Shown here piece after piece: positions 10,975 to 28,338 of a stretch of 64,000 nucleotides of DNA; positions within the stretch are counted from its first letter, which is position 1; the number at the start of each line of letters is the position of its first letter. This DNA comes from an uncultured Candidatus Bathyarchaeia archaeon (GTDB taxonomy: Archaea; Thermoproteota; Bathyarchaeia; RBG-16-48-13; GCA-020345945). The notes below the pieces were generated by a model that did not search any database, was not told the DNA's origin, and saw only the letters and a list, made by a program, of their open reading frames with translations. The position numbers and the translations under genes were made by a program. The stretch covers positions 11,248 through 75,247 of the forward strand of contig CAZBVH010000001.1 in the NCBI GenBank assembly GCA_964495315.1, in the 5' to 3' direction.

Positions 10975-11015
10975 CTATACATTTGTATGCGCAGAGATAC
11001 GGGCTAAGTAGCGTG

Positions 11016-11384
11016 CTAGAATGTTATGACTGCGTCAGCCTCCAATAGTAGGTCGTTTAGGGTGGCAGCCCCGACGATCGTTACTGGTTTCTGGATGTTC
11101 CCCTTCTCTATTCCTAGGAGCATGCAGCTCTGGTCGCAGACCATCATGCGTACCCCTGCTCCGACGGCTTGGTCCATGACCTGCTTTAGGGTCGGGAAGC
11201 TTCCGACCTTAATGTTCTCTGCCTCTCCACTCTTCACAACGGTTACTCCCTTGATGACGAAGTATATCGTGGCGTCGATTCCCATCGCCTGTGCTGTCGC
11301 GGCAAGGATGAAGGGGGCGTAGAGCCTCTCCGGGGTATCCGTTCCACTTGTCTGCACATATAGGATCCTCTTTCTCTCTGGCAC
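11016..11384 (-). CDS. DsrE/DsrF-family sulfur-relay protein
   Basis: 122 aa with DsrE-like fold motifs and a conserved Cys in MMVCDQSC. Confidence 0.75.
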   Translation of the reverse strand: MPERKRILYVQTSGTDTPERLYAPFILAATAQAMGIDATIYFVIKGVTVVKSGEAENIKVGSFPTLKQVMDQAVGAGVRMMVCDQSCMLLGIEKGNIQKPVTIVGAATLNDLLLEADAVITF

Positions 11385-11388
11385 TCTC

Positions 11389-11640
11389 TCACCTCCGGCA
11401 GCTGGTCTTCCTTATGAGGAATCTCAGGCCAACCTCCTCTTTCCTGAAGTCTAGGATCTCCTGTCCCATCCTCCTGGCCCAACGCTTGATATCCTCGTCT
11501 GCAGCCGGGTCATCGGCAAGCACCTCCAACACCTCCCCGCTCCTCAGCTTCCCCACCTCGGCGGCGGTCCTGAGTATGGGTTCGGGGCAGCATAGCCCTC
11601 TCAAATCGATCTTCCTCTTAGGGTTGGTTGGCATGTCCAT
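11389..11640 (-). CDS. TusA-like sulfurtransferase
   Basis: 83 aa with the CPxP motif (DLRGLCCPEP). Start is 4 nt upstream of the dsrE-like gene, consistent with an operon. Confidence 0.8.
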   Translation of the reverse strand: MDMPTNPKRKIDLRGLCCPEPILRTAAEVGKLRSGEVLEVLADDPAADEDIKRWARRMGQEILDFRKEEVGLRFLIRKTSCRR

Positions 11641-11692
11641 GATGCACCTCTCTGCACGCTGTGTGCTGCAGTTATGTCAGATACAGATATAT

Positions 11693-11711
11693 CTTTATGA
11701 CGCTGTCATAA
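11693..11711. promoter_or_regulatory. 19 bp palindrome TTTATGAC-gct-GTCATAAA in the divergent tusA-operon / E1 intergenic region
   Basis: Perfect 8 bp inverted arms with a 3 bp spacer, read directly from the sequence. Lies 56 nt from the tusA-like start and about 60 nt from the E1 start. Confidence 0.4.
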
Positions 11712-11769
11712 AAAGAATGCGCTGTATGCCGAAGTAAAAACCAATAAAGTCTCTGAAATGTGAGAAACC

Positions 11770-12861
11770 GTGGGGAATAGATTGGACAAGACAGGGCTAT
11801 CGGAGGAAGATCTCTACACGTATTCAAGACAGATAGTGTTGAGAGAGATCGGTTACGAGGGGCAAGAACGCATACGAGATGCCAAGGTCTGTGTTGTCGG
11901 TCTGGGCGGCCTAGGGTGTCCTGCTGTCTTGCAGCTTGCCGCTATGGGGGTAGGCTATCTGAGGATTGTCGATCGGGATCTTGTAGAACGTTCGAACCTC
12001 CATAGACAGTACCTCTACGATACGAGTCAGCTCGGGCTTCCGAAGGTTGAGGCGGCGATGCTCAAATTGGAGAAACTTAACCCCGATGTCAAGCTGGATC
12101 CTCATCCTCTCTCTGTAGACGGCTCAAACGCAGGAAGGGTCGTTGAGGGAATGGATGTCGTGCTCGATGGGTTAGATAACCTGAAACCCCGGTATGCGGT
12201 CAATCGGGCGTGCGTTGAACATAATATTCCCTACGTGTTTGCAGCCGCCATAGAGACCTTCGGATCTGTGTCAACAATCATCCCTGGAGAGACCTCGTGC
12301 CTGGAGTGCTTCTACTCCGACATCGATGAGGATCTCCTACCCACCTGTTCCGTTGTTGGGGTTCACCCCTCTACTACCTCAATCGTATCGAGCCTAGAGG
12401 TATCTGAGGCGGTTAGAGTTCTTGTCGATACCAAACCCAAACTTGCAGGAAGCCTCCTCTTCTTCGACCTGTCAAATATCGAGTTCGATCGGATCGGTCT
12501 CAAAAGAAGGGAAGACTGTCCTGCATGTGGCGAGAGCCCTGCACAGATTCACAGATTCCGTGAGAGCATTCAGATCGAGGAGGTCTGCAGTCGGGGAGGA
12601 AGAAGGACCTTTATCGCGGTGCCCTGTGAGGACCTGGACCTGGACCTCCGTGTGATTCAGAGAAGGTTAGAGAGGACGATGGGAATGCTGTCCAAGCGGA
12701 CTAAGATGAGTCTAGCTTTCATGTTCAAGCACCGGACACGGACAACGCTCCTTCAGTCCGGAGTATGCATCCTTGAGGGGCGCGTGGACGGAGATGCTGC
12801 TCTGGCGAGTTACCGTCGAATCATGGAAGGTCTTCAGTTGACTGGGTCCCGTCAATCATAG
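11770..12861 (+). CDS. MoeB/ThiF/UbaA-family E1-like activating enzyme with C-terminal extension
   Basis: Rossmann GLGGLGCP nucleotide site and two zinc CxxC pairs (CLEC and CPAC), followed by about 100 aa of unassigned C-terminal sequence. Confidence 0.85.
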   Translation: MGNRLDKTGLSEEDLYTYSRQIVLREIGYEGQERIRDAKVCVVGLGGLGCPAVLQLAAMGVGYLRIVDRDLVERSNLHRQYLYDTSQLGLPKVEAAMLKLEKLNPDVKLDPHPLSVDGSNAGRVVEGMDVVLDGLDNLKPRYAVNRACVEHNIPYVFAAAIETFGSVSTIIPGETSCLECFYSDIDEDLLPTCSVVGVHPSTTSIVSSLEVSEAVRVLVDTKPKLAGSLLFFDLSNIEFDRIGLKRREDCPACGESPAQIHRFRESIQIEEVCSRGGRRTFIAVPCEDLDLDLRVIQRRLERTMGMLSKRTKMSLAFMFKHRTRTTLLQSGVCILEGRVDGDAALASYRRIMEGLQLTGSRQS

Positions 12862-13057
12862 GTGAGGGATTGGTAGATTCATCTTGTTGGCTCCTGGCAA
12901 AACCTCAGAAGCCTCGGTCACGCGAGTAAAGATCCTAGGCCACCCTGTCCAAGGTGAGACGCATCTGCGTGCCTTGGGAGGCAGGCTCCTTGATTATTGA
13001 TGCCTATAATCATCTTGGGGGTCCTGATCGGGGAGACCATGCGAGGCAGTCTCCTGA

Positions 13058-13383
13058 GGAGATCATCGCAAATATGGATCGGTCGGCTGGCTGGTTGCTG
13101 GGATGGATGCGTCTCTGAACGAGAAGACTGGAATCGGGGAGACGAGGCATTCACCGTCAGGCTATGATCTAGTATTACTCGGTGTACCTGCTTGGAACAG
13201 CAGAGTCCTCCAGCGATGAGAACCTACCTCAAGAGGAACGACCTATCGGAGAAGAGGATTGCGTTCTTCTGCACCAACGAGGGATCCGGTGCTGACGATG
13301 CTTTCTCGTGCCTGAGGGCTCTGGCGAGGAATCAGGATCCGGTAGCTCAGCTGGTTGTGGGTGAGGCTCTCAAGGACCGGTAG
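13058..13383 (+). pseudogene. Frameshifted flavodoxin-like (Flavodoxin_4-type) gene remnant, C-terminal half only
   Basis: Frame 2 reads ...YDLVLLGVPAW... and stops at 13217. Frame 1 continues with ...DLSEKRIAFFCTNEGSGADD...VVGEA, the expected downstream flavodoxin motifs. No intact N-terminal half exists upstream. Confidence 0.4.
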
Positions 13384-13543
13384 GGTGCGGAGAGTGAGGT
13401 GGAAGGCTCGTGTAGAGAACTGATTGCGGTCATGGGTAAGGTCAGGAGGCGTTCCACTGCCGAGATATGGTTGAACTCTTTATTCTGATCTTTCTTATGT
13501 TTACCTGCAGTATAGGTAGCCTTCGCGGCTACTGGTTCTCTCT

Positions 13544-14254
13544 TCACCGGGGGCGGGAGCTTTCTCCTTCGATTCTTCCGTCCCTCATGCGGACAATCCT
13601 GTCCGCGAAATCGGCTGCGATAGGATCGTGGGTGACCATGATCACGGTGACCCCTTCCTCCTTGCAGAGGTCCTTCAGTTGGCCTATGACCTCCTGCCCG
13701 GTCTTTGTGTCTAGGTCTCCCGTAGGCTCGTCTGCAAGGATCAGGCTCGGACGATTGGCTAAAGCTCTTGCTATCGCAACCCTCTGCTGTTCTCCCCCGC
13801 TGAGTTCATCAGGTCTATGATCTGCCCGGTCTGAGAGCCCGACCGTCTTGAGTAGCTGGTCTGTTCTCTCCCTGCTCTTCTTCCTGTCCACATTGGCCAG
13901 GTCCATGGGAAGTTCTATGTTCTCTCTGGCTGAGAGGACAGGGATGAGGTTGTAGAACTGGTAGACGAACCCGATCTTATGTCTCCTTATCCTATCCTTG
14001 TCCGACTCTCTCAGCTTCGAGAGGTCCTCTCGGTCAAGGATTATGCTGCCTTCTGTAGGCGTATCCAGGGTTCCTATGAGGTTGAGTAGCGTGGTCTTTC
14101 CGGATCCGGATGATCCCATAACCGCGACGAACTCCCCCTTTTTCACTCTTAGGTCGATTCCGTTTAGGGCTTTAACCTTCAGTTTTCCGAGTGTGTAGAC
14201 CTTGGTTAGGCGGTTCACTTCTAGGATCGATGTCTCGGTCTCGTTTCTTGTCAT
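13544..14254 (-). CDS. ABC transporter ATP-binding protein (MacB/LolD-type)
   Basis: Walker A (GSSGSGKTT), signature LSGGEQQR, Walker B ILADEPTGDLD and H-loop. Confidence 0.9.
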   Translation of the reverse strand: MTRNETETSILEVNRLTKVYTLGKLKVKALNGIDLRVKKGEFVAVMGSSGSGKTTLLNLIGTLDTPTEGSIILDREDLSKLRESDKDRIRRHKIGFVYQFYNLIPVLSARENIELPMDLANVDRKKSRERTDQLLKTVGLSDRADHRPDELSGGEQQRVAIARALANRPSLILADEPTGDLDTKTGQEVIGQLKDLCKEEGVTVIMVTHDPIAADFADRIVRMRDGRIEGESSRPR

Positions 14255-14258
14255 CTGT

Positions 14259-16913
14259 TCACTCGTTCCTCCTTATGGCGTCGACTATGTCTAGTCTCAG
14301 CGCTTTGTACAGGGGATATGCCACGCTGACGACTGATACCCCGAGCGCGAGTATAGTTGCGGTCCTCATTGCTTCCCAGGGTGTTTTGAGTGCCCCGGAG
14401 AAGCCTGTCTGGGCCATCACGAAGGTGATTCCTCTGTAAATGATTAGTCCGGAGATCGTTCCCAGCAGTAGCCCTATTGCTCCAAGTATGATTGCTTCTC
14501 CGACTATCATCTTGTTCACCTGGTTTATGCTCATGCCTTGAGATCGCAGTATACCGATCTCTCTCTTCCGCTCCGATATGTTCATGATCATTATACTTGA
14601 CATGCCGATTGCGGATACCACGACTGAGAAGAGGATCAGGTTGTTGAATAGGTTCCACATCTCATTCATGTTCTTGTCTATTGCCTCGAGGATGTCGATT
14701 CTCGTGATTACTCCGATCCCGTATTTCTTCCCGAATTTCTCGAGAATTCTATCTCTCACGTATCCAATTCTCTCGCTATATTCGGGTTTGACCTTTACGT
14801 AGAACAGTGTTGCCTCGTCCTCGTAGTAACCCCATTGCGCGTTCAGGGTGTGGTATGAGATGTAGCACATCTTGCTCATTGGTCCTCCTGATGGCTGCTG
14901 CATTCCTACTTCGACTATTCCGATGACGTGGAAGATCCTCCATACTGGTTTCCAGATGACGATGTTTGGTGCGATCTCGACTGCTAGCAAAGAGAGGACG
15001 TTGATCTTCGATCCCACTCTCGCCCCCAAAGTTTGGGCAACGCCGCTTTGGAGGATGATTGTGTTTGGGTCATGGAGTCTCTGGTAGACATCGGGCGGGG
15101 TTTCTGGTGTGAAGGTCATATTCATTACTTTGGGGTAGGCACAGTACCTGTCTGAGTAGGCTCCGTTTGGGGTGTGGATCGCGCTCAGGCTGATCGTGAC
15201 ATTCTCGCTTCTTGTCACTGATCGTATCTTTGTGCCGATTATCCGAACTGGGGCAGCCTGCTCAATAAGGGTCCTGTTCTCAAGGCGGGCGAGGTCTTTC
15301 CAGAATTCTCTTTGAAGTGCGTCGTCTCCCGCTATCACCATTATGTCGGATTGGAAGAGGTTGGTGACCGTCTTTTCTATCCCGTTGTTTACGGTATATT
15401 GTACTCCGCCTATCGCGACTATGAAAGACAGGCTTATTGTTATCAGTGTGAAGCAGATGGTTGTCCTTACTAGGTTTCTTGAGAAGTTTCTCGATGCGAG
15501 TCTGCTGATTTTTCCGAATACAGGGTAGAGCGCGTACTCGAAGATCTTCTCTGTGGCTTTTATGAGTCCCGCCGTCATCAGGATGAGACCTGCTATCAAA
15601 GGAGGAATCGAGGCTGCGCCGATTCTCGGGATATCTATGACCTTGGATGCATTGGCGAATCCTTGGAGGTAGACTCCTATGAGGAATAGTGGGGCTCCTG
15701 CTCCAAAAAGTACCCATTGAAGCCTTCTGTGGCCGGTCATTCTCATCGAGGGTCTGAGTGCCTTTAGGATTTCTGTTCTTCCTGCAATAATGGACGGGAT
15801 GAGTCCACCGATCAATGTGGTTAGTAGCCCTGTTGCGACACCGAGGGCTATTGTCTCTGGCTTATAGATAATCGTGATTCCTTGGGACGCGTGGAAGCCT
15901 AGCGTCTTCGAGAAGTATCCTGCTAACAGAAATCCTGTCACTAGCCCTGTGGCTGTTCCCGCTATGCCGAGGAGTATGCTCTCAAACAGGAACATTCGAA
16001 AGACTTGTGTCTTTGAGGCCCCTATGGATCTGATCACCCCTATCTCATAGATCCTCTCCTTCACGTTCATGTAGACTGTATTGAAGACGATGACGAGGGC
16101 GACAACGCTTGTTACAGCCGACATTATGAGCAGTCCACTCCTGAAGCCCTGCATGGCATTCTGCATGCTGTCAAGGATCCTTTCCTTATCGGCGGTTACT
16201 TCATACTCCCCTCCAAGGGCTCTCCTGAGTCTCTCAACTACTTCACGGGTATCCGAAACGCTGTCAACCCGAGCTATTATTCTTGTGAACTTCCCCCAGG
16301 CTCTGGACATCTGCCGGGCCGTTGCAAGGGTTACGTACGCTGTGTATCTCTGGATGAAGAACATTCCTCGGCTCTCAACTGGAAGATGGTATAGACCTAC
16401 CACTTCCAGCCAGTAGTAACTTGACCCCACTCGGACCTTGATTCTCTGTCCAATCGTGTAGTTGAGTCGGTCATCTATGATGATCTTTCCAGGGTCCAGC
16501 GATCTGCTTCCAGTTATGTTTGTGTATTCCGGGTTCAAGTAGTCGAAGTCGCTTGTCGGGTTCACTCCGTTGATTGAGAGTGAGGCTGAGCTTTCCTCCG
16601 TCATGTTCCAGAATATGGCGTGCCCTGAGGCTGTGACTCTGCCTGATGCCTCCGCTACGCCTTTCACCTGCCGGACTTCTGACAGGACCTGCTCACTTAG
16701 TGATGCGCCGGTAGCTGAGTAGACGCTGATGTCTATGGATCCAGATGACCTATTGATGGTGTCAACGAATTGGTTGTAGGCGCTGTCGAAGGCTATGTTG
16801 ACCCCTGTTAGGAGCGCGACGCCGATTATGATGCTCAGGACGGTGAGCGTGTTCCTGAGCTTGCGTCTGGAGAGGCTTCTGAACGCGATTCTTGTGGTGG
16901 ACATATGTGCCAT
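14259..16913 (-). CDS. ABC transporter permease, duplicated FtsX/MacB-like with large extracytoplasmic domains
   Basis: 884 aa. N-terminal TM helix, large extracytoplasmic domain and FtsX 4-TM block, then a second repeat of the same arrangement. Confidence 0.85.
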   Translation of the reverse strand: MAHMSTTRIAFRSLSRRKLRNTLTVLSIIIGVALLTGVNIAFDSAYNQFVDTINRSSGSIDISVYSATGASLSEQVLSEVRQVKGVAEASGRVTASGHAIFWNMTEESSASLSINGVNPTSDFDYLNPEYTNITGSRSLDPGKIIIDDRLNYTIGQRIKVRVGSSYYWLEVVGLYHLPVESRGMFFIQRYTAYVTLATARQMSRAWGKFTRIIARVDSVSDTREVVERLRRALGGEYEVTADKERILDSMQNAMQGFRSGLLIMSAVTSVVALVIVFNTVYMNVKERIYEIGVIRSIGASKTQVFRMFLFESILLGIAGTATGLVTGFLLAGYFSKTLGFHASQGITIIYKPETIALGVATGLLTTLIGGLIPSIIAGRTEILKALRPSMRMTGHRRLQWVLFGAGAPLFLIGVYLQGFANASKVIDIPRIGAASIPPLIAGLILMTAGLIKATEKIFEYALYPVFGKISRLASRNFSRNLVRTTICFTLITISLSFIVAIGGVQYTVNNGIEKTVTNLFQSDIMVIAGDDALQREFWKDLARLENRTLIEQAAPVRIIGTKIRSVTRSENVTISLSAIHTPNGAYSDRYCAYPKVMNMTFTPETPPDVYQRLHDPNTIILQSGVAQTLGARVGSKINVLSLLAVEIAPNIVIWKPVWRIFHVIGIVEVGMQQPSGGPMSKMCYISYHTLNAQWGYYEDEATLFYVKVKPEYSERIGYVRDRILEKFGKKYGIGVITRIDILEAIDKNMNEMWNLFNNLILFSVVVSAIGMSSIMIMNISERKREIGILRSQGMSINQVNKMIVGEAIILGAIGLLLGTISGLIIYRGITFVMAQTGFSGALKTPWEAMRTATILALGVSVVSVAYPLYKALRLDIVDAIRRNE

Positions 16914-16950
16914 TCCAAATAGTCTTGTCTCTTGGGGGTGGGAGGCTCAT

Positions 16951-17208
16951 TTAAGATTTCTTGCCAGGGGATCTTTCGTCTTCTCCGCCAAGGGCTCCCA
17001 TGAGCTTGATGGCGAATTCACGGACGTGGTCGGCTCTCGTGATGACGATGGATTTATGTGGGCCGCCGCCTAGGACGAGCAGTTTCTCCCCTGGTCCGAT
17101 CCCCATCTCTTCTCTTGCCTCTTTGGGTATCACTATCTGCCCCCTCTCACTTATGGTTACGATTCCGTAGATGCGTATCCTTTTCCACAGCTCAGCCATT
17201 CGGATCAC
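16951..17208 (-). CDS. SpoVT/AbrB-family DNA-binding protein (putative regulator of the downstream ABC operon)
   Basis: 85 aa with the swapped-hairpin motif ISERGQIVIPKEAREEMGIGPGEKLLV. GTG start; 37 nt upstream of the permease gene. Confidence 0.7.
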   Translation of the reverse strand: MIRMAELWKRIRIYGIVTISERGQIVIPKEAREEMGIGPGEKLLVLGGGPHKSIVITRADHVREFAIKLMGALGGEDERSPGKKS

Positions 17209-17300
17209 TTGTGCACAGTTTTCATGGAAAAGCTATCTTCATACTTTTCATACAAATCATATTATTAAGTTTTTACCTACTTGAGCATTCGCTGAGACCG
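17209..17300. promoter_or_regulatory. AT-rich divergent promoter region between the abrB-like/ABC operon and the corrinoid methyltransferase operon
   Basis: Local AT content is about 68% (ttttcatacaaatcatattattaagtttttacc), against a window average of about 47%. TATA-like ttattaag and tttttacc elements are present. Confidence 0.35.
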
Positions 17301-17453
17301 CGATGTAGAACCATGCAATTCCGGCTCGAACTGCAACCGCGAGATCCTCTAATGGATCTCGAGGCAATCAAGACCCGAGAGTCCTGTGTGGTGAAAAGGC
17401 TCAGCAAAAGTCTTATCGAGAGTATAGTAACCCTCTCTCCTCGGTGAGGGCAG

Positions 17454-18626
17454 ATGGCTACGACGCGCGACAGGTTGATGGCTGTTCTTGAGGGCAAGGA
17501 GCATCAGAGCGTAGTGTGGTGGCCCAGGATAAGGCACTGGTACGATGTGAACAACTGTGCGAATACGCTTCCCGAGCGATATAGGGGGCTCTACTTAGAT
17601 GAGGTCTACAAAGATCTTGGCGCAACCCCGCGCGAGGTCTGGATAGGGGGTCTATTCGGTGGAGGCGAATACTCTGGAGAGATCGCCTTGGTGACCAGAG
17701 AAGGAAATGATGTGGAGGTATGGGTGAAGCCTGCTAAGGGTCTCTACAAGGACACCTCTGGTGACTTCATCGTCACAAAGTACGTGACCCCGGTGGGCGA
17801 GATGACGCAGGTCGCTAGGAGGACGGAGAGTGGCACTTCCTCTTATACTGTCGAGCACTTCCTCAAGGACCAGGAGAGCATAGACGTCTACAAGTACGTC
17901 TTGGAGCACAGGGAGTATGAGTTCGACTGGCCGCGCTATAGATGGGGTGAGAAGAGGTACGGCGACCAGATCTACCCCAAAGCTGCGACAGAAAGGGAGC
18001 CTCTCCTAAGGCTAGTGATAGGGATGATGGGGCTCAATAGAACGGTGATCTGGCTCTGGAAGCACCAACAGGAGATGGAGGAGCTCATGGAGCTGATGCT
18101 GCAAGACCTTGAGAAACAGATTGAAGCCTATGCTGGTACGCCTGTCGTAGAGTTGTGCATGCCATCAAACACTCACGAATCCCTATGCTCACCAAACCAG
18201 TTCAGGAAGTATATGATACCTCACCTCCAGCGGATCGCAGAGAAGGTTCATGCGGCTGGGAAGTACATCTCATCCCACTGGGACGGCTTTGTGAAGAATC
18301 TACTTCCGCTCCTCAAGGATACGGGGATAGATGGTGTGGAATGTGTAACGCCGAAACCTCAAGGCGACCTTACACTTGAGGAGATGAAGAGATACATAAC
18401 TGATGAGGGCAGGTTTCTCAGGGATGGGCTGCCTGCCGTCCTATTCACGAAGCATCACTCTGTAGGGGAGCTTGAGGCGTTCACACGGCAGATCCTGGAT
18501 ACGCTTGGCGGTTCTGGGCGGCTGCAGCTCGGCGTCTCCGACATGGTTCCCGCGAATGCCGATATTGAGCGGGTTAGGCTCGTAGGCAAGATTGTCGAAG
18601 AATGGAACGAAGAGAGATTCGGGTGA
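17454..18626 (+). CDS. Uroporphyrinogen-decarboxylase (URO-D) family methyltransferase (MtaA/MtbA-like methylcobamide:acceptor methyltransferase)
   Basis: 390 aa URO-D-fold pattern. Lies 3 nt upstream of a corrinoid protein gene. Confidence 0.7.
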   Translation: MATTRDRLMAVLEGKEHQSVVWWPRIRHWYDVNNCANTLPERYRGLYLDEVYKDLGATPREVWIGGLFGGGEYSGEIALVTREGNDVEVWVKPAKGLYKDTSGDFIVTKYVTPVGEMTQVARRTESGTSSYTVEHFLKDQESIDVYKYVLEHREYEFDWPRYRWGEKRYGDQIYPKAATEREPLLRLVIGMMGLNRTVIWLWKHQQEMEELMELMLQDLEKQIEAYAGTPVVELCMPSNTHESLCSPNQFRKYMIPHLQRIAEKVHAAGKYISSHWDGFVKNLLPLLKDTGIDGVECVTPKPQGDLTLEEMKRYITDEGRFLRDGLPAVLFTKHHSVGELEAFTRQILDTLGGSGRLQLGVSDMVPANADIERVRLVGKIVEEWNEERFG

Positions 18627-18629
18627 TCT

Positions 18630-19283
18630 GTGTTGACCGAGAAAGGGAAGAAAATCCTTGAGAAGATAAGGAACAGTGTCGTGAACTTCGACGTGGAAGG
18701 CATAAGGAGCGCGAGTTTAGAGGCGATAGGGACAGGGATGACCACGGGAAGGGTCATAGAAGCGATGGGGGAGGGGATGGGTGTTGTTGGCAAGAAGTAT
18801 GAGGCGGGAGAGTACTTCGTCCCAGAGCTCATCATGGCAGGCGAGACGATGAAGGAAGGTCTGGCGGTTCTGAAGCCACACATGGAGGACGAGCCGCAGG
18901 CTACCTTAGGTACCGCTGTCGTTGCAACCGTTCTCGGCGACCTCCACGATATCGGGAAGAACATATTCATCACCCTGCTGGTCGCAGCCGGATTCAATGT
19001 CGTCGACTTGGGGGTCGATGTGCCCGCAGGGAAGATTGCGGATGCCGTCAGGAGTTCTGGTGCAATTATCGTCGGTCTCTCCGCCCTCCTAACCACTAAC
19101 CTAGATCAGATACCCCTCATCATCAACGAATTGGAGAAGGTGGGGCTGAGAGAGAAGGTGAAGGTTATCGTGGGAGGAGCCACCGTGACTGAGGCCTTTA
19201 CGAAGGAGATAGGGGCTGATGGCTATGCTAAGGAAGCCGTGACCGGTGTGGATATCTGTAAGAAGTGGGCGAAGCAAAGCTAA
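18630..19283 (+). CDS. Cobalamin-binding corrinoid protein (MtaC/MtbC/MtmC-like)
   Basis: DxHxxG B12-binding motif (DLHDIGKN) in a Rossmann-like B12-binding domain, preceded by an N-terminal helical cap. Confidence 0.85.
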   Translation: MLTEKGKKILEKIRNSVVNFDVEGIRSASLEAIGTGMTTGRVIEAMGEGMGVVGKKYEAGEYFVPELIMAGETMKEGLAVLKPHMEDEPQATLGTAVVATVLGDLHDIGKNIFITLLVAAGFNVVDLGVDVPAGKIADAVRSSGAIIVGLSALLTTNLDQIPLIINELEKVGLREKVKVIVGGATVTEAFTKEIGADGYAKEAVTGVDICKKWAKQS

Positions 19284-19335
19284 GGATCGACATCAAGTGG
19301 CTTATCCTAGTAGAAGCAGTATTGGGGGCATTGTC

Positions 19336-19554
19336 TCAAGAGAGCCCACTGGCAAAAGGCTTGCACGGGGCGTGGACAGCCTCTACGAATGAGTCCCACC
19401 ACCATTGAGGCTCTTGCTCAGCCCACCCCTTCAGAGGATGGTGTACCTTACAGAACGAGCGGCCTAACCCCGCTATGTTTCCTTCTGAATCGGTGAGGAT
19501 CGCTCTCAAACTGGTCGTTCCTGCATCTACACCTAGGACGTACCTCTCGACCAC
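19336..19554 (-). pseudogene. FGGY carbohydrate kinase (glycerol/xylulose kinase-like) N-terminal fragment
   Basis: 72 aa. YVLGVDAGTTSLRAIL...GWAEQEPQWWWD is the FGGY N-terminal phosphate-1 region. The ORF ends after about 70 aa and the remainder is missing, because the neighbouring gene on the other strand begins. Confidence 0.55.
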
Positions 19555-19579
19555 AGTCCATCATCTGTAAGAGGGGTCT

Positions 19580-20533
19580 CTAAATCCTCAACGTCCACAA
19601 TATGCGTGACGGTCCTTCCACTTCTGCAACTTTTCCCTGCTTCGCTAGTCGCTGCAGGTGCACTAAGACGGTGCGGTTTGTCACACCCTCAGGAATCCTC
19701 CGCCTAAAGACTGGGCATACGGCATAGGAGACCTCAGCAGCGCTCATGGGTCTTTTCGTCTTCTTGAGGATTGCCACTATCTGGTCCGCAATCTTGAGGT
19801 TTATGTCCGAGGAGAACTTTAGGTACTCTCTAAGCCGGAAGCCCTTGAGGATCGCTCTCTCAGAGGGCAGGTAGGGGTGATCTGTCAGCATCAACCGCAG
19901 ATTCATCTTCATCAATCGATCGATCGAGCTGAGGTATGCGTCCACATCTTGCAGGATTATGAAGTCATCAGTTTTGGTGCTCCCTCCAACGACGGAGTCT
20001 CCGGTGAAAACGGTTTCTCCTTGCCTATCGTAGAAGCAGACTGAGTCGGCTGAGTGTCCAGGGGTGTGCACAACCTCCAGGCTGAACGGTCCAAGTTCTA
20101 GGGCTTCTCCGTCCTTCAGGGTTCGATCAACCCTCAGGGGTTGGCTGATGGGTCTCTTGAGGATGTTCTCCCTGTCCTTCTCTGTCAAGTACTTTCCATA
20201 ATCAGCCAGATACTTGGTGCGTTGCATCTCAGGTTTCTCAAGTGCTTCAGCCCCCGATTCGTGTACTGCTATCTTTGCTCCGGTCGCTGCCTTTATGGCT
20301 TGATCACTGCCGACATGGTCGCCGTGGTTGTGTGTATGTATGATTAGGGAGACATCTTTAGGGTCGCGTCTTACCTGCCTGAGGTAAGGCAAGATTACGT
20401 TCTCCCATGTCCCCGGCAGACCAGAGTCTACTAGGGTTATCTCTTTTCCCAGGATTGCGTAGCAGGCTGTGAATATCCCATGCATCGGCTGCTCCAAATA
20501 GTGAATGGCTTCAGTAATCTGCATAAGAATCAC
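19580..20533 (-). CDS. MBL-fold metallo-hydrolase with C-terminal winged-helix-like domain
   Basis: HTHNHGDH motif and downstream His/Asp ligands. The C-terminal 70 aa looks like a wHTH. Confidence 0.8.
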   Translation of the reverse strand: MILMQITEAIHYLEQPMHGIFTACYAILGKEITLVDSGLPGTWENVILPYLRQVRRDPKDVSLIIHTHNHGDHVGSDQAIKAATGAKIAVHESGAEALEKPEMQRTKYLADYGKYLTEKDRENILKRPISQPLRVDRTLKDGEALELGPFSLEVVHTPGHSADSVCFYDRQGETVFTGDSVVGGSTKTDDFIILQDVDAYLSSIDRLMKMNLRLMLTDHPYLPSERAILKGFRLREYLKFSSDINLKIADQIVAILKKTKRPMSAAEVSYAVCPVFRRRIPEGVTNRTVLVHLQRLAKQGKVAEVEGPSRILWTLRI

Positions 20534-20851
20534 CTGAATCTCAAAGCCCTTGAACCACGTATACTATTTTCGATTCCCCATTCGATCCAGTCACAGCAGC
20601 CAAATAAGAAGGAATCCGGAAGATCTGCTATTTGGGGCTCCCCAGTGAACCTCTCCGCTGACAAACGAGTATCGATCGCGAAGGGTGACCGCGGCAGACT
20701 TATGGATGATGACTCAATCTGCTCGGTGTTCCCAGCAAGTTGAAGCCTTCCCCTTTTTCCCATCAATCAATTCCGACGAGGGTCTTGGCATCTTTCTTGT
20801 CAGTTGATGGCAAACCGATCTTCAGGTTCCGAGGAGTGTCCACCGGGAGAA

Positions 20852-21121
20852 CTAGCATCTTTTGGAGTGCCTTCTGCTGGCTTTGTTAACGAGATCGGTC
20901 TTCTGATCATGGCTGAGACCCTTGATCTCCCGTTCTCGTCTCATCGCGTCCCTGCGTGACTCGAACTCCTCCACATATACCAGCCTCATCGGTTTTCTCA
21001 TCCTAGTGTACTTGGCGCCGCGCCCTTGCCTGTGCCATTCGACACGTGATTCCAGGTCCCTAGTATATCCCGTGTAGTAGCTCCCGTCTCGACAGAGGAG
21101 CATATAGACGTAATGCATCAT
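20852..21121 (-). CDS. GIY-YIG nuclease family protein (UPF0213-like, stand-alone)
   Basis: 89 aa. YVYML...GSYYTGYTRDLESRVEWH...R...E is the GIY-YIG core. Confidence 0.8.
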   Translation of the reverse strand: MMHYVYMLLCRDGSYYTGYTRDLESRVEWHRQGRGAKYTRMRKPMRLVYVEEFESRRDAMRREREIKGLSHDQKTDLVNKASRRHSKRC

Positions 21122-21136
21122 AAATTGTCACGCTAG

Positions 21137-22252
21137 TCAGACCTTCGGCAGGCTCAGCCTTTGATCTGCCTGTTGAAGGAGCTTTACAATCGGCAGATCA
21201 TAGGGACATCTCTTCTCGCACTCCCCGCACTGCGTACAGTCATCAACCCTGGTCGAGAGTCTCATATACTGACTCCGCGCCCAATCTTTCAACCCATAGC
21301 CGTAGTATCGGTCGAATCTCAGGATCGCAGGGATCTTCACGAACTCAGGGCATGGCATACACATCTCGCATGTGTTCAGCGTACCGCCCTCCCGGCAGTG
21401 GAGGCCACCCTCCTCACTCCAGAACTCGAATTCCTCCTCATGGGTCGCGCGGTCAAAGTCTCGAACCGCCTTCACGGCGGCATCGATCTCTTCCACGTTC
21501 TCGAATCCAGAGACTATTGTGGAGACTTCACGGCGTAATAGGAAGCCGAGGGCGCGCCTAGCTATCTCGCGGTCGTCTCTGCCCAAGAGTGTCCTGAACT
21601 CGTCGGAGCCCAGGAAGAAGGGTTGTCCGCCGAAAGGCTTCATGACGACGACGCCCACGTCGAGCTCTTTCGCCAAAGGGACGAGTTCCTCCAGGGCTCG
21701 CCTCGTAATCACGTTAATCGGTACCTGGATTGCGTCGAACTCCCCTGTACGTATGGCTTCGATGAGTACGTGTGGATAATGCCCGGTGATTCCGATGTGG
21801 TCTACAAGACCTTGGGACCGGGCCTCCCTCAAGGCTTCCAAGGCGCTGTCTGAGCCCATGGCTCTCTTAAGCGTCGACAGGTCGTTTACGCCATGCAGCT
21901 GGACCGCGTCGATTCTGGTGGTTCTCAGCCTCTTGAGGCTATGCCTGAGTTGTACCCATGCACCGCCCCTCGTCATGTCCTCGACCTTCGTCGCTATAAC
22001 GCAGTCATCCCTAACAGGTGCCAGGGCGTCGCCGATGCGCTCCTCGCTGTTATAGTAGGATCGGGCAGTATCGAAGTAATTAATGCCCTGGTCGAAGGCG
22101 TAGCGCACGATTCGTTCTGCTTCCTCTCTCGTCATAGGAGGCAGATGCTCTCCTATCGGAGCCCCACCGAAGCCAAGTACCGAGACCTCAAGCCCAGTCC
22201 TTCCGAGCCTGCGTTTCTCCATTTTTCCTCGAGCTTCCTTCACTCGAACCAC
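21137..22252 (-). CDS. Aldo/keto reductase fused to a C-terminal 4Fe-4S ferredoxin-like domain
   Basis: AKR N-terminus (RRLGRTGLEVSVLGFGG, catalytic D/Y/K/H pattern). C-terminal CEMCMPC and CTQCGECEKRCP cysteine clusters. Alternative start at MEKRR (22222). Confidence 0.85.
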   Translation of the reverse strand: MVRVKEARGKMEKRRLGRTGLEVSVLGFGGAPIGEHLPPMTREEAERIVRYAFDQGINYFDTARSYYNSEERIGDALAPVRDDCVIATKVEDMTRGGAWVQLRHSLKRLRTTRIDAVQLHGVNDLSTLKRAMGSDSALEALREARSQGLVDHIGITGHYPHVLIEAIRTGEFDAIQVPINVITRRALEELVPLAKELDVGVVVMKPFGGQPFFLGSDEFRTLLGRDDREIARRALGFLLRREVSTIVSGFENVEEIDAAVKAVRDFDRATHEEEFEFWSEEGGLHCREGGTLNTCEMCMPCPEFVKIPAILRFDRYYGYGLKDWARSQYMRLSTRVDDCTQCGECEKRCPYDLPIVKLLQQADQRLSLPKV

Positions 22253-22469
22253 CCCAAGAAAACTGGTTGGTACTCAGGCTGCGAGCTATAAAAGCCTAAT
22301 TTGCCGTCCTCATCCGGTCAGCTCTTCCATGGCTATCCGTGATCGCGTATGCCTTCGCTGTGGACACCTCGTCCATCAACCTTGAAAAGATTCAGAGAAG
22401 AAACGAAACACTTACCAGACGGTTGTAACCCAAATTCTAATCTCCTGACGTTTCGGTGGACTGGACACG

Positions 22470-23144
22470 GTGTGGAAAGCTATCGCCTGCGATTTCGATG
22501 GAACCTTGACTGACGAGCAAGGTAGGCTGAGCATAGACGCCTTGGCTGCGGCAAGAGAGTCAGAGGCTAGAGGGATTCCCATAATCCTCTCAAGCGGCCG
22601 AGTCCTAGCTGAAATGAACATGCTGTCAAAGGTCATCGGGACAAGCGGACCTATAATCGCCGAGAATGGGGGAGTTATCTGGAATCCTAGGACACTGAGC
22701 AAACATCTGCAAGGCGACCCAGAGAAAGCCAGGAGAGCGTATCAAGCCCTCCTCTCCCATCCAGGCGAGATCGAACTCCTCAAGCCGACGCTTAGGGAGA
22801 CCGACGTAGTCGTCAGAGGAAGAAGGGTCGCAGAACTGCAAGCCATACTCAGAACAGAGGAGCTGGGTGTTCACATCATAGATGCCAATGTCGCCACCCA
22901 CATCACCGACACATCCGTTGACAAAGGAAGAGCACTCAAGACCGCCGCAGAGATGTTGAACATGGATACCAGCGAGATTGTAGCGATCGGGGACTCCCCG
23001 AACGACATAGCACTATTCCAGGCTGCCGGCGCAGGATACGCAGTCGCAAATGCTGACCCCCACCCAAGTGACCAGACGATCCTTCGGCGCAGGATGCGCG
23101 GAAGCGATCCGAGAAGTCCTGGAGAGCCTTCACTGAATGATTAG
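22470..23144 (+). CDS. HAD-superfamily phosphatase (archaeal phosphoglycolate phosphatase-like, HAD-IIB)
   Basis: DFDGTLT motif I, SGR motif II and a GDSPND motif. GTG start. Confidence 0.75.
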   Translation: MWKAIACDFDGTLTDEQGRLSIDALAAARESEARGIPIILSSGRVLAEMNMLSKVIGTSGPIIAENGGVIWNPRTLSKHLQGDPEKARRAYQALLSHPGEIELLKPTLRETDVVVRGRRVAELQAILRTEELGVHIIDANVATHITDTSVDKGRALKTAAEMLNMDTSEIVAIGDSPNDIALFQAAGAGYAVANADPHPSDQTILRRRMRGSDPRSPGEPSLND

Positions 23145-23320
23145 CGTATCTTGAACAGCCACCATGGTTCGTGAGGTCAAGCGATTTCTCAAGATGGGAC
23201 AGATAGGAAGAATGAAATAACAAATCGCTACGAGTGAGAAACCCGGAGAGCGATCGTTAATATGAAAGACCTGACTCCATTCCTCCATGTTCAAATGGCA
23301 ACCAGAAAAGGAGGCATTCT

Positions 23321-24592
23321 ATGAAAATGGTCAAGCGAGGTAGGCGTAGACTACTCGAAGAGGACCAGGAGACAGCCAGAATCGTCTCTGAGATCTTGAA
23401 GGACATCGAGAAGAATGGGATGGATGCCGTTCGCAGATACAGCCAGAAGTTTGACGGGTGGAACCCGAAGAGCTTTGAGCTGGGTGAGAAGGAGATCGAA
23501 GAAGCGATCTCGAAACTACCAGACCAAGTCATCGAGGATACTGATTTCTGCCAGGAGAATGTACGTGAGTTTGCCAGAGAGCAGTTAAAGACCCTGCACC
23601 CTCTTGAGGTTCAGATCAGACCGGGAGTAGTCCTTGGCCACAAGCACATTCCTGTCCATTCGGTCGGGAGCTACATTCCCGGCGGAAGGTATCCTATGTT
23701 CGGTTCGGCGCAGATGAGTATCATACCCGCGAAGGTAGCCGGGGTGAAGAATATTGTTGCATGTACTCCGCCTGTCAAGGACGAGGGATACTATCCGGCA
23801 ACCGTTAACGCAATGAAGAAGGCTGGGGCGGACCGAATATTCATATTAGGAGGGGTCCAAGCCATGGCGCTCATGGCTTTCGGGTTGGGTGAAGTTGAAC
23901 CCGTCGATGTCCTCTGTGGTGCTGGGAACAAGTATGTTGTGGAGGCCAAGCGCCAACTGTTTGGGCGGTGTGGAATCGATCTCCTTGCTGGTCCGACGGA
24001 GATCCTCATCATTGCGGATGAGAGTGCAACCCCTAGCCTCGTAGCCTGCGATCTTCTAGGCCAGGCAGAACATGATCCGAACAGCGGTGTCTGCCTGATA
24101 TGCCTCAGCGAGGAGTTCGCCCACAGGACCATCACTGAGCTTGAGAAACAGCTGAAGGTTCTTCCGACTCGTGATGTCGCCGAACTCTCTTGGGGAATCA
24201 ACGGCATCGTCTATGTCGCTGACAGTAGGGAAGAGGCGGTCAAACTCAGTGACGACTATGCCCCGGAGCATCTGGAGCTACACGTGAAGGATCCCGACTA
24301 CTATACCGAGAATCTTACAAACTATGGTTCCTTATTCATCGGGGAAGAGACGACGGTTGCCTACGGTGACAAATGCATCGGAACGAACCACATCCTGCCT
24401 ACGAGCCGTGCAGCCCGCTTCACCGGCGGACTATGGGTAGGAAAATTCCTGAAGACCTGTACCTATCAGCGGATGACACCGGCCGCAAGCCGTGAGATCG
24501 GCATGGTCACGGAACGCCAATGCAGACAAGAGAACATGCTTGCCCACGCGATCACTGCCAGGGTAAGGGTGGATCGCTATACCAAAGGTTAG
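23321..24592 (+). CDS. hisD: Histidinol dehydrogenase family protein
   Basis: 423 aa with the HisD-family pattern throughout, including the Zn/NAD site residues around QAEHD and HLE. Confidence 0.85.
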   Translation: MKMVKRGRRRLLEEDQETARIVSEILKDIEKNGMDAVRRYSQKFDGWNPKSFELGEKEIEEAISKLPDQVIEDTDFCQENVREFAREQLKTLHPLEVQIRPGVVLGHKHIPVHSVGSYIPGGRYPMFGSAQMSIIPAKVAGVKNIVACTPPVKDEGYYPATVNAMKKAGADRIFILGGVQAMALMAFGLGEVEPVDVLCGAGNKYVVEAKRQLFGRCGIDLLAGPTEILIIADESATPSLVACDLLGQAEHDPNSGVCLICLSEEFAHRTITELEKQLKVLPTRDVAELSWGINGIVYVADSREEAVKLSDDYAPEHLELHVKDPDYYTENLTNYGSLFIGEETTVAYGDKCIGTNHILPTSRAARFTGGLWVGKFLKTCTYQRMTPAASREIGMVTERQCRQENMLAHAITARVRVDRYTKG

Positions 24593-24661
24593 GCTTAAGC
24601 GTGCCCGACAGCATACCACCTGGTCAAATATCTCAGAGTCTTCCAAAGGAGAGGAGACCGC

Positions 24662-25426
24662 ATGAGTAACGAGATGTTCAGACTGGACAACAAAGTCGCG
24701 TTAATCACGGGGGCGGCGACAGGTCTCGGTGCCGCGATCTCCATAGCGCTTGCCAAGAATGGTGCCGATGTTGCTATTTCAGACAAGCCCGGTGTGGGCT
24801 TGGATAATACTGCAACGAAGGCAGGGGTGTATGGACACGGGGTCTTCAAGGTTGGCATCGATGTCCGCGAACTCAGTCAGATCCGCGAGGGGGTTGCGAC
24901 TGTTGAGGATGAGTTCGGCAGAATCGACATCCTAGTGAATAATGCTGGAATCAATAGGCCTGCGCCAGGCCTTGAAGTGACAGAAGACAACTGGGATGAT
25001 CATCTCAATACGAACGTGAAAGGCGGCTTCTTCTTGGCGCAAGCCGTAGCCAAAGGGATGATATCCCGGGGGTGGGGGCGGATCATCTTCATCGCCAGTC
25101 AGTCCGGGTTGATAGGCATCCCGGGGCAGTCCGTCTACTGCTCAAGCAAAGGCGCGGTGATCCAGTTGGCTCGTACCCTTGGCGTGGAGTGGGCTAAGCA
25201 TGGAGTCACTGTCAACGCTGTGGCTCCAACCTTTGTGGAGACAGACCTCACCCGCAAGCGTCTGCAGGACCCTGGGTTCCTGAGATTTGTACTGGATAGG
25301 ATTCCTGCTGGGAAGCTTGCTATGCCGGAAGATGTCGCCGCAGCCGTAGTCTACCTTGCGAGCGAAGATGCAAGGATGGTTAACGGCGCCACGTTATCCG
25401 TTGATGGTGGCTGGACAGCGTGGTAG
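24662..25426 (+). CDS. SDR-family oxidoreductase
   Basis: TGAATGLG glycine-rich motif, NNAG, and the YxxxK catalytic dyad (YCSSK). Confidence 0.9.
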   Translation: MSNEMFRLDNKVALITGAATGLGAAISIALAKNGADVAISDKPGVGLDNTATKAGVYGHGVFKVGIDVRELSQIREGVATVEDEFGRIDILVNNAGINRPAPGLEVTEDNWDDHLNTNVKGGFFLAQAVAKGMISRGWGRIIFIASQSGLIGIPGQSVYCSSKGAVIQLARTLGVEWAKHGVTVNAVAPTFVETDLTRKRLQDPGFLRFVLDRIPAGKLAMPEDVAAAVVYLASEDARMVNGATLSVDGGWTAW

Positions 25427-26369
25427 GAGAAATCGGAGAGGAGGAAGGAGCCTGAAGGAGTTTCCTAGGCTTTCAAGCTCCAAACTCCTCGAACGACTTG
25501 AGCTGCCTAAAGGCAAGGTCAGGGTTGTCCTCGACACCGACACCTACAATGAGATCGATGACCAGTTCGCCGTTACCTACGCGATGCTCTCACCTGAGAA
25601 GATGACCGTTGAGGCTATCCATGCTGCACCGTTCTTCAATGCTCGTTCTACGGGACCAGCGGACGGGATGGGAAAGAGCTACCAAGAGATACTGCGTGTC
25701 CTCAGCAGGCTAGGCTGCAAGGCTGAGAACCTTGTCTTCAAGGGGTCTGAAAGCTATCTGCCTAGTCCTGAGACTCCGGTGCAGAGTGACGCCGCCCGTA
25801 ACCTGGTGAAGAAGGCTCTTGAGCGAGAGGAACCGCTCTACGTGGTAGCCCTAGGGGCGCCGACAAATGTGGCTTCAGCGCTGCTCATGGAACCGATGAT
25901 CATTGAGCACATCGTGGTCATCTGGCTTGGCGGCAATCCCCTCTACTGGCCCTCGGCCTCCGAGTTCAACCTGAAACAGGATCTTGCCGCCTCAAAGCTA
26001 CTCTTCGACACTGGTGTGCCGCTCATACACATTCCCTGCAAGAATGTCTCCGAACACCTGCGTACAACCGTCGCCGAGCTTGAACGGTACATAAAGGGCA
26101 CCAGTGCAATCGGCGACTACCTTTTCCAGATATTCTCCGATTACCGCGACGATCATTTTGCTTGGTCCAAACCTCTCTGGGACCTCGCCCCTGTCGCCTT
26201 CCTCGTAGATCCCTGTTGGGTTCCGACAGAGATTGTTCACAGCCCTATACTGAGCGATCAGATGACCTACAGCCTGGATCAAGGCAGACACTTCATCAGG
26301 GTCGCCACAGGAATGAACCGCGACGAGATATTCCGCGATCTCTTCACGAAAGTAAGAGGCGCAAACTAG
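25356..26369 (+). CDS. Nucleoside hydrolase (IU-NH family); start uncertain because it overlaps the SDR gene by about 70 nt
   Basis: DTDTYNEIDDQFA aspartate cluster and Ca-binding pattern. No ATG/GTG/TTG in frame between the SDR stop (25426) and the conserved DTD motif (25527). Confidence 0.8.
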   Translation: MRAKMQGWLTAPRYPLMVAGQRGRRNRRGGRSLKEFPRLSSSKLLERLELPKGKVRVVLDTDTYNEIDDQFAVTYAMLSPEKMTVEAIHAAPFFNARSTGPADGMGKSYQEILRVLSRLGCKAENLVFKGSESYLPSPETPVQSDAARNLVKKALEREEPLYVVALGAPTNVASALLMEPMIIEHIVVIWLGGNPLYWPSASEFNLKQDLAASKLLFDTGVPLIHIPCKNVSEHLRTTVAELERYIKGTSAIGDYLFQIFSDYRDDHFAWSKPLWDLAPVAFLVDPCWVPTEIVHSPILSDQMTYSLDQGRHFIRVATGMNRDEIFRDLFTKVRGAN

Positions 26370-26534
26370 TCGGACCATTGGACCGTGACGATCCTATAAT
26401 CCATGAAGAAGATGACTGCCAAGGCCGCGGTCCTTCTACTGGCTGACCAGGATTGAGGATTCCTAGATATTTCCCCCGACCACCTGGCTAGTGAGTCTTA
26501 AAGGCTTTAATCTTCAAGGTTCCGCTTCGCTATC

Positions 26535-27071: not shown

Positions 27072-27270
27072 CCCTCTCTGACCTCCGATTCCTTGTGAGG
27101 TTTCGATAGGAGAATCCTTACTCACAGTCAAGCAGGTTTCTATTGCTCCCATGGGAAACGTTTTAAGGGGCTAAAGGAGTTAAGGCGGTGTCCGTCTGAG
27201 CCACGTAGCGTCTCAAAACCGCCGGAAGTCCTATGGACTTTCTAAAGAAGCTAATTCAAGTGATTACACG

Positions 27271-28281: not shown

Positions 28282-28338
28282 CTAACCAGGTTAGCCCTTA
28301 GCTCATTCTTATGCCAAAGAGGCAGTCATGCCTCAATG

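Follow-up and report, generated by a model that had tools for sequence, protein, structure and literature searches.

A divergent UroD-superfamily protein encoded beside a corrinoid protein in Bathyarchaeia: a candidate substrate:corrinoid methyltransferase with its own carrier

Results

The gene pair and its upstream region

A 64-kb stretch of DNA from contig CAZBVH010000001.1 of a Bathyarchaeia archaeon (positions 1..64000, the whole of which is called the window) contains two adjacent open reading frames (ORFs), ORF A and ORF B, which are the subject of this study. ORF A encodes a protein related to the uroporphyrinogen decarboxylase (UroD) superfamily, and ORF B encodes a corrinoid protein. 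The features of the locus are the following.

16951..17208, minus strand: MazE/AbrB-like gene, divergent from ORF A, matching Pfam MazE_antitoxin
17209..17453, plus strand: intergenic region of 245 nt upstream of ORF A, common to the divergent MazE/AbrB-like gene (reading of the sequence)
17454..18626, plus strand: ORF A, ATG start, 390 amino acids, predicted divergent UroD-superfamily protein (ORF call)
18630..19283, plus strand: ORF B, GTG start, 217 amino acids, predicted corrinoid (cobamide-binding) methyl-carrier protein

The ORF calls placed both genes on the plus strand with a gap of 3 nt ('TGA tct GTG'), in agreement with the first-pass annotation of this stretch. A GGGTGA element overlaps the stop codon of ORF A just ahead of ORF B, and the Shine-Dalgarno-like element GGTGAGGG is located 6 nt 5' of the ATG of ORF A. 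The 245-nt region includes an AT-rich stretch at about 17240-17275 and, judging from its position and composition, may function as a promoter. The gene pair is real, far beyond chance. The 3-nt gap, together with the recurrence of the pairing in the relatives described below, supports a co-inherited, corrinoid-linked gene pair.

ORF B, the corrinoid protein

Residues 10-82 of ORF B match Pfam B12-binding_2 (PF02607; 63.5 bits, E 2e-17) and residues 95-206 match B12-binding (PF02310; 78.3 bits, E 5e-22), which corresponds to the architecture of an N-terminal B12-binding_2 cap followed by a Rossmann B12-binding domain. The cobamide-binding motif was located as follows.

18939..18956, plus strand: codons of the DxHxxG motif, D104-L-H106-D-I-G109, the base-off/His-on cobamide-binding motif

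The canonical DLHDIGKN motif that had been assigned to the second gene is present with D104, H106 and G109, and the His ligand, on which the earlier interpretation depended, is kept as His106. Further motifs are SALLTT at residue 151 and GG at 182-183. Each of the 14 corrinoid proteins that are encoded together with a member of the ORF A family has kept the DxHxxG motif. The closest solved relative by sequence is 4jgi (E 2.5e-41), presumably the corrinoid component of a putative O-demethylase from Desulfitobacterium hafniense, which carries a motif identical to that of ORF B ('GDLHDIGKNI'). It is followed by 1y80 (Moorella), MttC (7xcn), MtmC (3ezx) and the B12 domain of MetH.

The E values against the solved members of the MtmC/MtbC/MttC/MtgC type ranged from 1e-33 to 1e-41, and ORF B shares with these proteins the two-domain architecture and the DxHxxG, SxL and GG motifs; its scores, however, are below each curated cutoff. 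The best NCBIfam matches were MtgC, pyl_corrinoid (TIGR02370) and MtbC, at 158-166 bits, and ORF B stayed under every curated NCBIfam cutoff (TIGR02370 162.6 versus 215.3, MtgC 165.5 versus 370, MtbC 158.2 versus 350). On the basis of these matches, ORF B is predicted to be a methyltransferase-type methyl carrier of the broad family, belonging to no named substrate-specific subfamily.

ORF A, family and fold

The match of ORF A to Pfam URO-D is above the cutoff (42.9 bits, cutoff 23.9) and is confined to residues 191-296. The only NCBIfam models matched were those of MtaA, MtbA and CmuA: TIGR01463 (MtaA/MtbA) gave 28.8 bits versus a cutoff of 235.4 over residues 186-296 only, NF040654 gave 22.8 bits (cutoff 400) and NF041608 gave 15.7 bits (cutoff 600). 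The HemE model TIGR01464 gave no match at E <= 0.01. When ORF A (by phmmer) and the 54-sequence family profile were compared with the PDB sequences, no UroD, MtaA or CdmB chain was matched. The tetracycline-repressor chains returned by phmmer from the PDB were rejected as noise (E about 0.007, zero significant stretches).

The AlphaFold2 (AF2) model of ORF A, built on the family alignment, reached a pLDDT of 93.1 and a pTM of 0.90. With this model, the top Foldseek match in the PDB was MtaA of Methanosarcina mazei (4ay7_A, E 6.1e-11, TM 0.62/0.70), followed by uroporphyrinogen decarboxylases and then by MetE. A beta-rich insertion of about 55 residues is seen in the model at approximately residues 79-134. 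As modelled, ORF A is a deeply divergent TIM barrel of the UroD superfamily, and its sequence scores place it outside both HemE and MtaA/MtbA. The classification by hidden Markov models suggested in the first-pass annotation did return the MtaA, MtbA and CmuA models, but all of them far below their cutoffs, so that membership in these families was not supported. The label 'MtaA-like' given there had to be abandoned, given the 28.8 versus 235.4 bits and a His-Asp-Asp set in the place of His-Cys-Cys.

The predicted active site

The ORF A family profile (alignment A1, 54 family members) was aligned by hhalign with a small MtaA set, the MtaA reference being residues 53-342 of 4ay7 as read from a HMMER alignment with the URO-D protein of the Peptoclostridium locus L084 (the loci of the survey carry such L numbers). 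The local alignment had a probability of 93%, the global one 97.8% with E 5e-12. The residues of interest are encoded as follows.

18276..18284, plus strand: codons of His275-Trp276-Asp277, counterpart of the zinc-binding His-x-Cys of MtaA (hhalign)
18339..18341, plus strand: codon of Glu296, invariant, on strand E294-296 of the model
18540..18542, plus strand: codon of Asp363, counterpart of the third zinc ligand of MtaA, the Cys of 'APGCG' (hhalign)

The 'LHICG' of MtaA aligned with 'SHWDG' of ORF A, His corresponding to His275 and Cys to Asp277, while in the global alignment 'APGCG' fell on 'GVSDM', its Cys on Asp363. His275, Asp277, Gly278 and Glu296 are invariant in 54/54 members of the alignment and Asp363 is kept in at least 90% of them. 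The AF2 model puts each of these five residues at the C-terminal end of a predicted barrel strand; Glu296 is a possible fourth ligand or catalytic carboxylate.

According to Kountz & Balskus (PMC10418091), the S-methyltransferases of the UroD superfamily have a His-Cys-Cys site, while the O-methyltransferases have Glu, Asp or a non-ligand in place of one or both Cys, a change that favours the binding of oxygen. As aligned, His275/Asp277/Asp363 of ORF A fits the O-type pattern. Since the score of ORF A is far below the cutoff and His-Asp-Asp stands in place of His-Cys-Cys, a role like that of MtaA, i.e. that of the second methyltransferase (MT2), which takes the methyl group from the carrier, appears unlikely.

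URO-D-superfamily paralogues located beside family members in three further loci (L061 1863..2981, L063 9174..10181, L042 7365..8444) carry H-x-D-G where MtaA has H-x-C-G. The carboxylate variant would therefore be widespread among uncharacterised UroD-like proteins.

Distribution and genomic neighbourhoods of the relatives

Altogether 172 homologues of ORF A were found, mostly in Bathyarchaeota. The tier of 45-89% identity comes almost entirely from Bathyarchaeota/Bathyarchaeia, with some Thor- and Njordarchaeota, and a second tier of about 30-36% identity is bacterial (Hydrogenedentota, Armatimonadota, Planctomycetota, Clostridia, Oscillospiraceae). When the family profile was run against 1.84 billion representative proteins, with clusters at 50% identity, it matched 399 clusters at E <= 1e-30, from Bathyarchaeia, Asgard archaea, Hydrogenedentota, Armatimonadota, Planctomycetota and gut Clostridia. 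At E <= 1e-10 the number of clusters rose to 1518.

The neighbours were surveyed at 79 genome loci, including 16 assessable archaeal and about 60 bacterial ones. In 11 of the 16 archaeal loci, mostly from Bathyarchaeia, a corrinoid-protein gene lies directly 3' of the ORF A homologue (the window, L001, L004, L008-L013, L016, L036). These loci represent at least three sub-clades with 48-89% identity, and the two genes either overlap or have less than 20 nt between them. By neighbour clustering, the corrinoid protein was the sole neighbour family common to more than 8 of the 79 loci; a conserved MT2, activase or transporter was not found in this clustering. The pairwise identities of the enzymes and of the carriers are strongly correlated (r = 0.96, 14 pairs).

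Among the bacterial loci, a minority has a corrinoid protein too: its gene is directly downstream in L040 and L068, adjacent or close in L035, L040 and L068, and within about 4 kb in L017, L045, L061, L063 and L082. A protein resembling the MetH activation domain (PF02965) is also encoded in L040, L068 and L082. In L068 (7956..14634; Cloacimonadales, CAXXOU010000002.1) the order of the genes is family member, corrinoid protein, PF02965-like protein, histidine kinase with tetratricopeptide repeats (TPR), MtaA/CmuA-family protein and CobW. The MtaA/CmuA-family protein (182 bits) is nearly canonical, with 'FVCG...APGCD', and is fused to a HUIPC/thioredoxin-like domain. This cluster looks like a complete, uncharacterised corrinoid methyl-transfer system in which the second methyltransferase slot is taken by another, more MtaA-like protein.

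A further connection of corrinoid methyltransferases with glycan utilisation was observed in L084 (980..8638, Peptoclostridium acidaminophilum EAL2_808p), where the genes of a sugar ATP-binding cassette (ABC) transporter, of a protein with a GH123 domain (DUF4091), of a corrinoid protein and of an MtaA-like URO-D protein that has the full H-x-C...C follow one another in one orientation. Mtd (L002) and CdhC (L003) are encoded within 10 kb of ORF A relatives; the group therefore has genes of tetrahydromethanopterin (H4MPT) metabolism and of the Wood-Ljungdahl pathway.

The MtmB-family gene

The first-pass annotation had joined the pair with an MtmB-family gene of the same window into the three components of one methyltransferase system. 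This gene and the genes following it are the next.

50623..52083, minus strand: MtmB-family ORF, Pfam MtmB 130.6 bits over residues 10-294
49395..50591, minus strand: MR_MLE enolase-superfamily gene directly after the MtmB-family gene; best, sub-threshold match L-talarate/galactarate dehydratase
48330..49271, minus strand: F420-type luciferase-like (LLM) oxidoreductase gene, after the MR_MLE gene

The MtmB-family protein is a genuine homologue of MtmB and is related to PDB 1l2q (E 1e-19); only its N-terminal part (about 60% of the protein) matches the Pfam MtmB model, and no NCBIfam model was matched at E <= 1e-5. The ORF is uninterrupted, with no in-frame UAG (pyrrolysine) codon at the active-site position: the pyrrolysine X of 1l2q ('GMGVXGPE') aligns with Cys205 ('GLALCNYP'). 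The gene is 31 kb from the gene pair, on the opposite strand. An MR_MLE gene was found within 4 kb of the MtmB-family gene in 3 further contexts (L085, from a Bathyarchaeota metagenome-assembled genome, L086 and L087), and no corrinoid protein was found within about 6 kb of it in the window, L085, L086 or L087. For this homologue of MtmB lacking pyrrolysine, the recurring proximity to MR_MLE with no corrinoid protein near suggests a function other than methylamine:corrinoid methyl transfer. The proposed link with the gene pair could not be upheld in view of the distance and strand, Cys205, the MR_MLE neighbour and the lack of a nearby corrinoid protein.

The rest of the window and the host

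Greedy selection kept 54 ORFs of at least 100 amino acids, 52 of which were scanned against Pfam. Of the other two, 17058..17447 is a spurious ORF that overlaps with MazE, and 14259..16913 was identified as a MacB-type permease gene from its syntenic position in L001, an ENA contig with which the window is syntenic and where ORF A is 89% identical. The order common to the two is DUF362, aldehyde:ferredoxin oxidoreductase, radical S-adenosylmethionine/SPASM protein, ABC/MacB, MazE and the gene pair.

The 54 ORFs included no activase of the RamA/RACo type, no MtrH or other pterin-binding methyltransferase and no Mcr, so the scan, which covers this 64-kb window, agrees with the earlier statement that mcr and RamA genes are missing from the window. 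Heme or tetrapyrrole biosynthesis genes were likewise absent among the window ORFs. Rfam, run over the whole 64 kb (1..64000), gave no family at the gathering score, and no tRNA, rRNA or riboswitch, including the cobalamin riboswitch, was detected. From the distribution of the homologues, the host looks to be a non-methanogenic archaeon of the Bathyarchaeia type, in agreement with the context proposed before.

Sugar-acid and oxidoreductase genes abound in the window, and four of them are MR_MLE genes. The other features identified are listed below.

145..807, 30881..31963 and 49395..50591: MR_MLE genes
57918..58919: AraD1 family protein (GguC model, 501 bits)
45072..45854: HpcH aldolase
30009..30698: RraA-like gene
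36285..37298, 38436..39473 and 48330..49271: three F420-type LLM oxidoreductases
32056..43291: molybdenum-enzyme island, with MobA-like, XdhC and MoeA proteins, then the FAD, [2Fe-2S] and Mo subunits of an enzyme of the xanthine-dehydrogenase/CO-dehydrogenase family
13544..16913 and 60410..63982, minus strand: two MacB-type ABC systems, each with an FtsX/MacB_PCD permease of about 890 amino acids and an ATPase

The enolase-superfamily dehydratase and sugar-acid pathway genes are unusually dense and, taken with the three F420-type LLM oxidoreductases, suggest a sugar-acid-catabolising heterotroph. The MacB-type system at 13544..16913 is located directly upstream of the gene pair and is syntenic in L001.

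Discussion

The proposed function of the gene pair

From the sequence evidence we consider it moderately probable that ORF A is a substrate:corrinoid methyltransferase (MT1) and that ORF B is its cognate carrier. The substrate-side role is proposed because ORF A adjoins the carrier gene and has a carboxylate site, and the mechanism of an MT1 because of the site pattern, the gene order and the precedent of MtvB, OdmB, VdmB, MtoB and CdmB. These are MT1 enzymes of the UroD superfamily which are encoded with carrier proteins, as for example in cdmBCA (PMC13222342).

ORF A and ORF B would form a two-gene operon, the first half of a corrinoid-dependent methyl-transfer system. By homology, ORF B would bind the cobamide base-off/His-on through His106. 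The His275/Asp277/Asp363 site of ORF A, with Glu296 and probably with a divalent metal, would hold an R-O-CH3 donor by its oxygen and polarise this atom. Acting as an MT1 in the manner of OdmB, VdmB, MtvB, MtoB and CdmB, ORF A would then move the methyl group onto Co(I)-ORF B, giving CH3-Co(III). The MT2 would be encoded elsewhere, an MtrH-type enzyme being the candidate, and would move the methyl group to H4MPT for the archaeal Wood-Ljungdahl pathway; the activase, too, would be encoded elsewhere. In this scheme we infer the metal, the direction of transfer, the class of substrate and the identities of MT2 and activase from the gene structure, the fold, the motifs, the residue substitutions and the conserved pairing. 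MtrH has been described beside corrinoid proteins in other Bathyarchaeia, and activases were reported missing in two cultivated Bathyarchaeia systems (PMC10989822; PMC10477458).

Several observations weigh against this assignment. The 64-kb window is without an MT2 or an activase, which weakens it. In 5 of the 16 archaeal loci (L002, L003/L014, L005, L006, L015) no corrinoid-protein gene is nearby, and the same is true for most of the approximately 60 bacterial loci, whose family members are about 32% identical. The value of r = 0.96 fits long-term co-inheritance, but a shared species phylogeny would give the same result. The arrangement in L068 leaves the roles unfixed, as the MtaA/CmuA family holds both MT1 and MT2 enzymes. 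The metal site of ORF A is a probable one, read from the alignment alone, and CdmB, an MT1 of the UroD type, requires no zinc (PMC13222342). Several bacterial relatives are found beside GH38 alpha-mannosidases, GH9 enzymes, Gfo/Idh/MocA oxidoreductases, sugar ABC permeases and glycyl-radical enzymes (L045 7947..11933; L051 5075..9110; L065; L049; L026; L018). These carbohydrate loci may reflect a corrinoid-independent role in the wider family; they also hint at a carbohydrate-linked substrate for it.

Alternative explanations

The rival with the most weight, though we regard it as rather improbable, takes ORF A for an MT2 which demethylates methyl-Co(III)-ORF B and methylates H4MPT, tetrahydrofolate (H4folate), a thiol or an oxygen nucleophile, the MT1 being encoded elsewhere. 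The UroD superfamily does include MT2 enzymes (PMC10418091), the closest solved structure found by Foldseek is the MT2 MtaA, and MtaA, MtbA and CmuA are the only NCBIfam models that ORF A matches. Its scores, however, are 8- to 40-fold below the family cutoffs, and the thiol-activating His-Cys-Cys is absent, which excludes an acceptor of the coenzyme M (CoM) or homocysteine type; the L068 cluster, moreover, contains a far more MtaA-like protein. Two further points speak against ORF A being an MT2: the MT2 enzymes that act on pterins normally have the MtrH/MeTr fold and not that of UroD, and methanogens encode the MT1 beside its corrinoid protein and not the MT2. Still less credit can be given to the three-component system, in which ORF B would carry methyl groups between the MtmB-family protein as MT1 and ORF A as MT2, and we consider it very unlikely. 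All three families do occur within one 64-kb window, and in the Bathyarchaeota genome CP070773.1 an ORF A homologue is followed, about 8.7 kb downstream, by an MtmB-family gene. That homologue, however, has no adjacent corrinoid protein. In the window the MtmB-like gene is 31 kb off on the opposite strand, its recurring neighbour there and in L085, L086 and L087 is MR_MLE with no corrinoid protein near, and the protein itself has Cys205 at the pyrrolysine position, a match limited to the N-terminal 60% and no NCBIfam match.

ORF A might also be no methyltransferase but a metal-dependent TIM-barrel enzyme (decarboxylase, isomerase or hydrolase) whose substrate derives from a carbohydrate, the adjacency of the B12 protein reflecting regulation or cofactor handling. 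We judge this improbable, slightly more so than an MT2 role. It would agree with the lack of a corrinoid neighbour in most bacterial relatives, with the location of several of them in glycoside-hydrolase or sugar-transport loci and with the sugar-acid genes of the window (four MR_MLE, AraD1/GguC, HpcH, RraA); a His/Asp/Glu/Asp constellation is, besides, common in metal-dependent TIM-barrel enzymes. On the other side, a methyltransferase-type corrinoid protein with cap and DxHxxG is encoded next to the enzyme repeatedly, both in several sub-clades of the archaea and in bacteria unrelated to one another, and in L040, L068 and L082 a MetH-activation-like protein is present too. We know of no role of this corrinoid architecture beyond methyl transfer or light sensing. 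The identity of ORF A as a genuine uroporphyrinogen decarboxylase (HemE), for which the Pfam URO-D match and the Foldseek matches to UROD structures might be cited, is effectively refuted and has hardly any probability left: the Pfam match is limited to residues 191-296, TIGR01464 is not matched at E <= 0.01, a search of the PDB sequences with the family profile gives no UROD, genes of the heme pathway are missing from the window, and the partner gene encodes a corrinoid protein. The distinction from HemE made in the first-pass annotation was therefore correct. Taken as a whole, that annotation is supported as regards the pair, the His ligand and HemE, and is not supported as regards the MtaA-like label and the partnership with MtmB.

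Comparison with known systems

The assignment of ORF A as an MT1 with its own carrier can be compared with several described systems. Like OdmB, VdmB, MtvB, MtoB and CdmB, ORF A has a UroD-type TIM barrel and is co-oriented directly 5' of the corrinoid-protein gene (B-C order, cf. cdmBCA), and like the O-demethylase MT1 enzymes of the superfamily it has carboxylates where MtaA has Cys zinc ligands. CdmB has extra insertions between the first barrel strands (PMC13222342), and ORF A has the beta-rich insertion at 79-134. No similarity to these enzymes was found at the level of sequence, with neither phmmer nor the family profile matching a PDB chain. Unlike the UroD-type MT1 systems, the cluster has neither an MT2 of the MtvA/MtoA/CdmA type nor an activase, and most bacterial members of the family are without a corrinoid neighbour. 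With MtaA/MtbA/MtsA (TIGR01463, 4ay7), ORF A shares the best structural match, the hhalign probability of 97.8% and the His of H-x-C; it differs from them by an identity of only 14-16%, the His-Asp-Asp site and about 55 extra residues as the beta insertion, and no CoM or Mcr context is visible for its host.

In the type 1 mlp clusters, too, UroD-superfamily proteins are encoded together with a corrinoid protein; these clusters come from anaerobes that are not methylotrophic and, like the pair, include no H4folate methyltransferase (PMC10418091). The Mlps are about 30% identical to MtaA/MtbA, have a soft-ligand zinc site, occur in sets of two or three and have a Ram/RACE activase (PMC10418091), whereas ORF A has diverged much further, shows a carboxylate site, occurs singly and is without an activase. 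The MtgB-MtgC-MtgA lignin O-demethylase is also from Bathyarchaeia and, similarly to what is proposed for ORF A/B, has an MT1 with its carrier, with a proposed feed into H4MPT and no activase found (Yu et al. 2023, PMC10989822). MtgB, however, has about 300 amino acids and was reported to be without homology to known MT1 enzymes, and its cluster includes the MT2 MtgA (PMC10989822). Since ORF A has the UroD fold and 390 amino acids, it would represent a different, additional candidate MT1 family. ORF A is best described as a member of an uncharacterised clade of the UroD superfamily, marked by the His-Asp-Asp site and the beta insertion; the way in which it is proposed to work, as a corrinoid MT1 with a carrier, is of a known kind.

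Significance

A wider reading, which we offer as a speculation with a rather small chance of being correct, is that the ORF A family consists of previously unrecognised, widespread corrinoid-dependent O-demethylases which act on O-methylated carbohydrates or related methoxy compounds, not on lignin aromatics, and feed the methyl group into C1 metabolism; in Bathyarchaeia they would be an 'unidentified MT-I' feeding the couple of corrinoid protein (CoP) and MtrH. In view of the bacterial contexts, the family may also have another function. The case of the MtmB-family gene is also a caution that family names scattered over a window do not make 'three-component systems'.

Methylotrophic acetogenesis has been proposed for the Bathyarchaeia, and the substrate-specific methyltransferases were not identified in the published analyses (PMC7886697). 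MtgB is the only Bathyarchaeia-specific MT1 family tested so far (PMC10989822). The His-Asp-Asp site of ORF A offers a test case for the proposed rule that relates the ligand set to O versus S methyl transfer in the UroD superfamily. The gene pair is a concrete, expressible and assayable MT1 candidate in an abundant archaeal group, and a second MT1 candidate, with another fold and a carrier of its own, would widen the range of methylated compounds which the Bathyarchaeia can use.

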